A DNA stretch of 63,912 nucleotides, counting the filler, from Folioceros fuciformis (lineage: Eukaryota): assembly GCA_049999805.1 (NCBI GenBank). It is 14 parts of 14 records of this genome, joined end to end, with 100 filler letters (N's around TTAATTAATTAA, not from the genome) between each part and the next. Parts side by side here need not be neighbours in the genome. Positions count along the whole stretch, not along the records: positions 58,449 to 60,641 come from JBNGIO010001581.1; 13 more parts are not named here. The stretch is one strand, 5' to 3'. The notes beneath the pieces were generated by a model. That model saw only the letters and a list, made by a program, of their open reading frames with translations. It had not been told where the DNA came from and made no database searches. Both the position numbers and the translations under genes were made by a program. Of the stretch, positions 58,802-60,641 are shown piece after piece. The stretch's first letter is position 1, and each line of letters opens with the position of its first letter.

Positions 58802-60641
58802 TGCTACTAATTACGGAAGCGAGCTTTGTAAAAGCATCAATTAAATTAAATAAAAAGGAAAGTGTCCTTTAAATACAAAATTGTATATTGACTTTTGGGT
58901 TAAGTATTTAACCTCTGATTTAGCAGCTAGTATATAAACTATGTTAGGTTTCTTACTCCTAACACTCCCACTAAACCTACATGGTTTTTACAGCTAGGTA
59001 TTCGTACTTCTGGCCATCATGCACTGTTCAGCGCCAACAACTCTCAGTAATTGTGGCATCCTTCCAACGTACATAACGTGTAGCTCCTGAACGTCTCTGC
59101 TTATATGCTGAGCTCCCTCCTTGTTCAACAAGTCGATTGCGTGTGCAAGCTCAAAGGTGAAGACAAGCTCTAGAGCATCTCTCAGCGCCAAGACCCTGTT
59201 CAAGATTAGCAACACAGCAACATGAGGAGCCCATTCAGCACTGGAGGAAGTGAAGTACGCGATCGGTCATCTGTAATCAGCGTTGCTCTGCGAGCAGTTG
59301 AGCCAACAACAGAAGTTCTGCCTCTTAATGAGCGTGCACCAGTGGGGACTCTGCCAGCAAGTCCGATCACTGTTGAGTTAGAGTCCTCTGAGTCTGAGCT
59401 AGACATGACAAACATCGACCTAGTTGCCAATACCACAGACGAAGAGACAAATGCTGTGGAGAGCTCCCTCTGGCATCAAGCTGAAGATGGAGAGCAAACT
59501 CCCACTGTTTCTGTACTTGAGCGGCAGGTTGCTGGTGTTATGGCAACCTTGACTGAGATGGAGGCCCTGCTGGATACGAGGAGAGCTGAAGTGACCAGAC
59601 AGCAAGCAGCCCTAATCAAGGAAACCATGAATAGAGCAGTAGCTACCGCCGACAAAACCATTAGCGACATAGAAGCCAATAGAGCTGGAAGAAACCGTGA
59701 CTGCAACGTGTGTGCTCATAGGTGCCGTCTGTGCCCTCTGTGTGGGAAAAAGCTGTACCAGGTATGGTTTTTTTTTTTTAACCCTGTTCCATGCTATAGC
59801 TGCGACTAAATCCAAGCTTTATGCTTCATCCACCAGTTACGCACGTACAATGATTTAATCTAAGACCTGACCTACCTTTTACAGGGTTGCTCGAAGAAGC
59901 ACAGAGTTGCTTCTCGTCACAGCAGCGGCAAAGGCCACTAGGATGAAGACACAATGTTGTCCACACATTGTGCTTCAACTTTAGCCACAACACCTGCCTA
60001 GGATAGTCAATATGTTTTTATAGGGTAGCTGAACTCTCTCAGTCCTAGGGCCGCCATATGCTGGAAGTGTTTGGCCTTTGGGAGTCCTTTCGTGAGTATG
60101 TCTACAGTATTAAGGTGAGTGCTGATGTACTGAACCTTAATAGCTCCTCATTCTGCTATATCCCTAATATAATGGTGATAGAGCTCAATATGCTTTGTTC
60201 GAGCGTGAAAACGGGGATTAGATACGAGAGCTATAGCGCTCATATTGTCACAGTGCAGCAAGGTTGGTGTGGACTCCACATGTTGAACAGAACCCTGGGA
60301 AATGATAGGTTTCTTTTTTTTGGATTTGTGAGTGAGTGTTATAGAGGAAAGGTTGGGAGATTAGGTTAGAATAGTAGCTAGATTTATGGTGAGTCGAGGT
60401 GTGGTGGTTGTGTGGTAGATAGGACACGGACTCTGGTTCCTCGGGGTAAGGTAACGGAGGAATAGGAAACCCTAGGACGTCGTGGAAGGCGAGCGGGGGG
60501 TCCTCTGGCTGTTGCTGGTAGAAGCTTGGGACGGAGATGGAGGTGTCGGGACGCTGCCCTGGTGCATCGGGTGGATAGGGATCACTAGAGCACAGGTGGC
60601 CAGATTAGCAGACCGGCAAGATCCGGGGTGGTGGCCTAGAT
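58802..60641 (-). mobile_element. Nested, internally deleted Ty1/copia element: RNase H tail (~60275-60007), 1-kb 3' region, PPT (58973-58965) and 163-bp 3' LTR (58964-58802)
   Basis: Minus strand reads PTLLHCDNMSAIALVSNPRFHARTKHIELYHHYIRD...VDILTKGLPKAKHFQHMAALGL. TAGTGGGAG is followed by TGTTAGG...TAGTAGCA. Sequence upstream of the RNase H tail is not pol. Confidence 0.85.
59222..59941 (+). CDS. Antisense gene inside the copia 3' region: acidic region, coiled coil and B-box-like zinc finger, 2 exons
   Basis: ORF from ATG 59222 with a predicted phase-0 intron 59762-59884 (CAG|GTATGG...TTTTACAG|). The spliced C-terminus is CNVCAHRCRLCPLCGKKLYQ|GCSKKHRVASRH...TAG (59939-59941). Confidence 0.55.

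Follow-up and report, generated by a model that had tools for sequence, protein, structure and literature searches.

Antisense open reading frames (ORFs) between pol and the 3' LTR (aORF-3R) are known from maize Grande (gene23), rice RIRE2, Silene Retand, PvRetro13 and fungal Boty (PMC7264820, PMC11963269); they are kept in most copies, a promoter of their own has been proposed, a helical domain is present and the function is unassigned. For copia elements, the accessible part of REXdb gives antisense extra ORFs (eORF-3'R) in only 1% of SIRE, the columns for Bianca and Ikeros being unclear (PMC6317226), and its 250-codon cut-off would miss the gene described here (PMC6317226, Additional files 4, 5). 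Among retroviruses, HTLV-1 HBZ and APH-2, 3 and 4 are spliced antisense genes driven from the 3' LTR with a helical oligomerisation region and two isoforms (PMC10186651). For RNA export or packaging, LTR elements can use a structured cis element placed downstream of pol, as in the IAP RTE and the musD MTE, or an accessory protein made from spliced RNA, as with the Cer1 export protein (PMC12786077). The sORF2/FAST-like proteins of the MDG1 group are products of an LTR-element accessory ORF which is sense, located at the 5' end and 63-107 aa long; they carry a myristoylation motif and a hydrophobic segment followed by basic residues (bioRxiv 2025.03.14.642691).

The gene analyzed here lies in a window of 63,912 nucleotides from Folioceros fuciformis, in which spacers separate short contigs; the contig concerned measures 2,193 nt and occupies 58449-60641 (G000:C1581 of the 87-Mb assembly). 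It resembles the aORF-3R class in its antisense orientation and its position from pol to the 3' LTR, being found in 17 of 18 rows of one clade with an omega of 0.42; unlike that class, it is located in a Ty1/copia element, measures about 200-245 codons, has a putative intron near its 3' end, and combines a four-Cys (C4) finger with a hydrophobic leader, with no match to TRP28, PMD or SMC. HBZ is its functional analogue among retroviruses, but is retroviral, has a bZIP and an intron at the 5' end, and no sequence relation was seen. In contrast to the RTE, MTE and Cer1 systems, the accessory gene here is antisense, and no Rfam or sequence match was obtained. Compared with the sORF2/FAST-like proteins, the product is much longer, antisense-encoded and without ectodomain, and its leader is dispensable. 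What is new is a Copia antisense gene with a probable intron skipping a previously uncatalogued folded RNA signal; no report of either the antisense gene or the RNA motif was found in the open-licence literature.

The copy in the window is a dead fragment, nested in the reverse transcriptase (RT) of another Copia (junction 58801/58802) and cut at 60267/60268. The insertion target is represented by an RT fragment at 58451..58801 on the plus strand (Pfam RVT_2, E 2e-12); a contig of run X1 matches 58499-58801 and then continues in other sequence as RT. A further element at 60268..60641 removes the 5' part of the carrier: family matches stop at 60268, and locus L115 matches 60267-60641 at 89%. 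What is left of the carrier lies on the minus strand, as the original prediction had placed it, and consists of RNase H as the 3' end of pol (60007..60267, stop codon 60009-60007), a polypurine tract (PPT) conserved in the alignment (58977-58965) and a 3' LTR of 163 bp bounded by TG..CA (58964-58802). A relative, L013, has the complete layout of 6.95 kb with a pair of 158-bp LTRs 89.9% identical to each other, a 5-bp target site duplication (TSD), a Met-type primer binding site (PBS) remnant and INT preceding RT. By these features of L013 and by its RT relatives, which are RVT_2 plant copia proteins, the nearest of them ≤62% identical, the carrier is a Ty1/copia LTR retrotransposon. On the U5 side of the LTR (58810-58822), a GCGGAAGC-type motif is kept across subfamilies with otherwise divergent LTRs; we take it, as a guess, to be a tRNA-primer contact. 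Short tandem arrays occur on other contigs of the window at 58216-58348, 60742-60915 and 52011-52589, with units of 31, 21 and 45-63 nt.

The antisense ORF opens with ATG 59222 on the plus strand between RNase H and the 3' LTR and contains, as had been noted, an acidic stretch, a long helix and a Cys cluster. Exon 1, counted from this second conserved ATG, comprises 180 codons (59222..59761, plus strand). A DNA search of the genome yielded 7 copies of the ORF with 67-100% identity; a protein search of the 87 Mb yielded 37 matches, 30 of which had loci and were examined. RNase H was located on the opposite strand, 3' of the ORF, in 28 of these 30 loci (weak and distant in L021), and the remaining two end at a contig edge. 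When loci were recruited via RNase H, the ORF was present in 17 of the best 30, all of them within one 18-row clade (support 93/90), the 18th row of which is interrupted by another element.

A codon model was applied to 26 copies, L037-L040 being excluded because of frameshifts or short hits. Omega was 0.42, and fixing it to 1 reduced lnL from -4590.9 to -4660.2 (2dlnL 139). The other frames gave omega values of 1.05-1.92, the sense shadow frame 0.54; the antisense frame contained 12 stops over the 26 copies as compared to 60 in the shadow frame and a range of 60-182 in the other frames. Differences common to several copies were synonymous in 133 and non-synonymous in 129 cases, those private to one copy in 50 and 189 cases, and 9 of 10 stop codons were private. 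These ratios indicate selection while the lineages were active and neutral decay after insertion. Since the 26-copy alignment was protein-guided, the test was repeated with alignments of DNA only. The 5' part (6 copies) showed an omega of 0.43 without stops and a shadow value of 0.59; helix plus finger (7 close copies) showed 0.34 with 4 stops and a shadow value of 0.47. Four stops were found in the shadow frame of each part, so that antisense and shadow frames are equal (4 vs 4) in the coil-finger part. The RNase H control in such an alignment gave 0.15, with 0.30 for its shadow. Furthermore, for 19 copies the tree of the ORF and that of RNase H had 12 of 16 splits in common and no strongly supported conflict. 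The antisense ORF is a protein-coding gene under purifying selection, inherited with pol. Copy number, selection and tree agreement with RNase H therefore dispose of the possibility, raised earlier, that the segment is a one-off insertion, and the dN/dS below 1 proposed as a check for the family was obtained.

A phase-0 intron of 123 nt (59762..59884, plus strand), predicted originally for this copy, is suggested by conservation. The window copy has GT at 59762 and AG at 59884, and its spliced product would have 198 codons, ending with TAG at 59939-59941. Among 29 copies (L037 excluded), GT is kept in 23, a branch-like CTRAY in 28 and AG in 19; AG is missing in 10 and GT in 6, mostly by losses of G in dead copies. 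Intron lengths range from 98 to 138 nt and are spread over all three phases (8, 14 and 7 copies), so that no read-through frame survives. Conservation of the protein ends at the codon boundary following G-K-K-L-x-x, i.e. at the GT. Exon 2 (59885..59941, plus strand) would add a short tail of 18 codons and a stop; of its x-G-[YF]-[EK]-P motif, the residues G, [YF], [EK] and P are kept in 24, 14, 21 and 18 of the 29 copies. The stop varies between TAA, TAG and TGA, and two copies stop at the third codon of exon 2. Exon 2 has an omega of 0.96 in 7 close copies and thus no purifying signal; the intron in the read-through frame gives 0.51 in the same number of close copies, which indicates how noisy this simple estimate of dN/dS is over short stretches. 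Judged from these signals, a single splicing event near the 3' end of the antisense gene is very probable. Being antisense, the intron would, as expected, outlast reverse transcription: the packaged RNA is the other strand, an established principle used in retrotransposition reporters (PMC12786077). A DNA motif of the GCCAC-TAAGG type lies at 59933-59942, where exon 2 stops; 23 of 29 copies retain it, including those with an earlier stop, and it is possibly a second cis signal.

The most conserved columns of the intron form a stem on the element's own (sense) strand. At 59796..59840 on the minus strand, a covarying stem of 7 bp closes GUGGAUGAAGC-N-RUCG; it has no Rfam match, a covariance-model search of 58780-60100 giving 0 matches up to E 5. 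Over 29 sequences, 91% of the cells are paired and 63 cells are changed on both sides. None of 500 shuffles reached the observed value and slid controls paired in 22-42%, the shuffle test being inflated by relatedness and the stem having been derived from the same 29-sequence alignment. The RNA pattern had 92 matches in the genome as compared to 3 for the control, and in 25 of 29 newly fetched pattern loci the end of RNase H was located 120-320 nt upstream on the same strand. Loci recruited by the pattern kept 5.9 of 7 stem pairs, with 21 G-U against 7 A-C pairs, which favors the sense strand. The covarying RNA stem is present on the sense strand; single-strand folding z-scores were weak (0.17 for the window copy). 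Outside the genome, 14 metagenome matches were obtained, none of them with RNase H nearby, and these were taken as chance; viral contigs gave 0 matches. The RNA element was also found in Copia families with a PPT about 40 nt later and without the extra ORF. It is thus older than and independent of the antisense gene, and it can be a candidate target of the protein at most.

In sister Copia families, this slot is taken by a different antisense ORF (L071-L075, L074, L078, L079, L089, L091-L100, L103, L108-L111, L116 and L117). This ORF begins with a hydrophobic leader (hydropathy 1.7-2.6 in 5 loci) and a basic stretch, followed by a W-P-T-Q-A-D-R-N-L helix and a second helix ending in L-G-Y; no Pfam, Atlas or fold match was obtained for it. 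A profile comparison of the C4-type with this WPTQ-type ORF gave a probability of 0.5% and E 0.11, which does not show homology. Of 50 distinct element contexts, 21 contain the C4-type ORF, 16 the different helical ORF and 13 neither profile, recruitment being biased so that these numbers are not frequencies. A donor-like site beside the RNA element was found in 16 of 19 second-type loci (L078 excluded; three of the donor matches fall inside the ORF end) as compared to 1 of 7 ORF-less loci, with 14% expected by chance; an acceptor match was found in 15 of 19 and 1 of 7, respectively (chance 37%). In L099, an unrelated antisense ORF of 204 codons with C-x2-C and H-x3-C lies beside a pattern match with a poor stem. 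Searches outside this genome did not reveal homologues: word-indexed searches, including longer and near lengths, gave none, 1.84 billion representative sequences one unrelated repeat protein only, the ESM Atlas nothing at 0.9, and metagenome contigs, PDB sequence and Foldseek searches no homologue.

Two other readings of the locus have to be weighed against these data. The coding strand might be the sense strand, harboring an env-like 3' ORF of which the antisense ORF is the shadow, or the region might be non-coding. The shadow omega of 0.47-0.59 and the few stops in close copies agree with a sense gene, but omega was lower for the antisense strand in every case, the shadow frame accumulated five times as many stops over the 26 copies, RNase H casts a like shadow, and splice signals, starts and the motif are all antisense; we therefore consider it very improbable. 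Alternatively, the gene may be real but unspliced, with a protein ending within the "intron" and GT and AG reflecting other constraints of the RNA element. In favor of this, exon 1 already holds the whole finger, no dN/dS signal was seen for exon 2, and some copies read far into the intron. Against this, donor, branch and acceptor lie outside the RNA stem and are kept over subfamilies about 50% apart, read-through frames vary among subfamilies, and donors recur in the sister families carrying another ORF, which makes an unspliced gene unlikely. Read-through as the ancestral frame was likewise rejected; it is suggested by 4 of 7 close copies and finds no support in the wider family. Taken as a whole, an antisense, spliced accessory gene of a Copia clade, on the strand opposite to gag-pol, is the probable reading of these alignments. 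The earlier view of an accessory gene is upheld in this respect by purifying selection and conserved splice signals; that the gene was captured is not, except that its finger resembles host CRIPT.

The finger has the form D-C-x2-C-x6-C-x2-C-G-K-[KR] (59699..59761, plus strand) and appears CRIPT-like by its Cys conservation and by Pfam Cript. Its Cys residues are kept in 25 (C1), 28 (C2), 29 (C3) and 29 (C4) of 29 copies, C3 and C4 serving as alignment anchor. The original prediction had instead proposed a TRIM-type B-box1 with eight ligands, assembled by splicing and damaged by a single C-to-Y change. Removal of the 123-nt intron indeed gives the window copy the proposed Cys/His pattern with a fitting spacing, and three of 29 copies show a C-to-Y change at C1. 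However, ligand positions 5-8 are occupied by C, C, H and H in 2, 1, 3 and 4 of 29 copies, and the exon-2 Cys is private to the window copy, with G in 24 of 29. The Tyr taken for a mutated Cys ligand is Y in 12, R in 7, F in 3, H in 3, C in 2, W in 1 and a stop in 1 of the 29 copies. No zf-B_box match was found in Pfam scans of exon 1 or of the unspliced frames. Additionally, the C-x2-C-x6-C-x2-C-G-[RK]-K finger recurs in a nearer sister family (L066, L070, L080-L085), where G precedes the third Cys as in CRIPT, and the ORF of this family mostly ends six codons after the fourth Cys; because it mostly stops before the donor, the intron would lie in the 3' UTR there. The B-box reading was rejected as extremely improbable; the finger is, from its conserved residues, of the four-Cys type.

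Pfam Cript ranked first among the families in 16 of 22 and in 18 of 20 members, with a best E of 2.5e-6; its curated gathering score was exceeded by one of 22 (L036, 28.5 vs 25.5 bits), and the window copy scored 13-15 bits. A Cript search of the genome found the host gene and 5 element copies, 2 of the 5 above the gathering score. The match covers at most profile positions 52-82 of 90, or about 20-28 residues, and of the CxxC pairs of CRIPT only the last two are present, which falls short of a whole domain. In a PDB profile search, CRIPT of 7DVQ came top with E 0.053, and Foldseek gave E 9.9. Of 2000 Cys-fixed shuffles compared with the C-terminus of host CRIPT, 9 reached the finger-only score and 1 the score of finger plus tail; in pairwise comparisons with CRIPT, spliced tails did not score better than unspliced ones (13 vs 15 of 29). 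The element shares with CRIPT (PF10235; 7DVQ chain 0; PMC11874965) the arrangement C-x2-C-A-Y-x4-C-x2-C-G-K-[KQ], followed by G-Y-K in the host protein; it differs in that a helix replaces the N-terminal part of CRIPT. Homology of the finger to CRIPT is conceivable on these scores, at somewhat less than even chances. The host CRIPT gene (G000:C3696:24043-24386; L043, L044) has an intron at a position different from that of the element's intron.

Upstream of the finger, AlphaFold2 predicted one amphipathic helix of 62 residues (59507..59692, plus strand; residues 37-98 of alignment A1) with pLDDT 96-98 over most of its length and the finger at lower confidence. By this model the helix is a probable coiled coil; the homodimer prediction score was 0.02. 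A hydrophobic-acidic V/I-x-E-L-x-S motif at 59366..59398 (plus strand) is conserved in the alignment and may be SIM-like. The original prediction also included a decayed upstream part starting with ATG 58981. Such a part exists, but it begins at 59078, about 350 nt upstream of the helix, and ATG 58981 was rejected as the start, several copies lacking it or having it out of frame. From 59078, a hydrophobic leader that contains Cys is read, with basic residues after it; remains of this leader and of the basic linker occupy 59078..59221 on the plus strand. Leader hydropathy in 19-residue windows was 1.4-2.3 in 6 copies and weak or absent in several subfamilies; the leader frame continues into the main frame in L016, L020 and L037, and stops close it in the window copy as well as in the two relatives closest to it. 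The ORF of the window copy still has an omega of 0.44 against L017, and the second ATG (59222) is widely conserved. Two isoforms, a membrane-anchored long form and a soluble short form, are therefore likely, this subfamily having kept the short one. The antisense gene is probably driven from the 3' LTR, as had been supposed: a TATA-like box facing the gene (58931..58938, plus strand) is a candidate promoter, and such a match 15-45 nt before the PPT boundary was found in 12 of 26 copies. A sigma-70 scan was empty and is irrelevant here.

We suggest the following working model. The antisense gene would be transcribed from the 3' LTR and, as is strongly inferred, its RNA would undergo one splicing event close to the 3' end. 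The intron would be the complement of an older structured signal needed by the element on its genomic RNA; splicing would let gene and signal share the same DNA, the complement of the signal being removed from the antisense mRNA, and the intron would thus be a device by which the antisense gene can end across a fixed sense signal. The long form, with its hydrophobic leader and subsequent basic residues, would be membrane-anchored. The short form, consisting of basic stretch, acidic linker, helix and finger, would be soluble and the sole form in the window's subfamily. Among the possible functions the most likely, though a speculation that we hold only tentatively, is that the protein is an adaptor on the element's own RNA-protein particle, promoting RNA export or localised particle assembly; it would oligomerise through the helix and bind a host or Gag partner via the finger. 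A role in cell-to-cell movement is equally speculative and has a slight chance.

The same gene might instead restrain its own element, the antisense RNA and a nuclear short form damping element expression in the manner of HBZ or of copy-number control. In deltaretroviruses, the 5' LTR is repressed by spliced antisense genes whose transcription is driven by the 3' LTR (PMC10186651); moreover, the short form has an N-terminal basic stretch and a helix, the antisense transcript must extend into pol, and copies are few and old, with 37 matches in 87 Mb. A membrane leader is, however, poorly suited to a repressor, and the complement of the most conserved sense signal is lost on splicing, so that antisense pairing would be weaker there; we regard self-restraint as rather unlikely. 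A further proposal is that the element acquired the finger from host CRIPT and uses it as a mimic, modulating the spliceosome or the chromatin/silencing machinery to its own benefit. CRIPT is a protein of the minor-spliceosome Bact complex (PMC11874965), and the Pfam ranking with L036 above the cut-off, the genome search and the Cys-fixed shuffles all point to CRIPT. On the other hand, the match is confined to the two last CxxC pairs, structural searches were poor, spliced tails brought no pairwise gain and the element copies are not independent; even if the finger were homologous, a mimic function would be much less probable, and we give the proposal as a whole a small chance. Action as a CRIPT-mimic or anti-silencing factor in general is likewise speculative and unlikely. 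The boldest version would be a clade-wide, Rev/RRE-like two-part system, in which a structured RNA signal is combined with an interchangeable antisense gene whose intron excises the complement of the signal, with a finger derived from CRIPT, membrane and soluble forms, and action on splicing or export of the element RNA; this whole combination we also judge improbable.

In plant retrotransposons, nearly all catalogued antisense accessory ORFs come from Ty3/gypsy lineages. An antisense ORF that is under selection and apparently spliced across a Copia clade, with swappable C-terminal domains, indicates that the class is wider than catalogued; surveys that require 250 codons and are blind to introns miss such genes. 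The RNA element is small, recurs in many of this genome's Copia families and has no counterpart in Rfam; it would therefore offer a direct handle on export, packaging or reverse transcription of Copia RNA.
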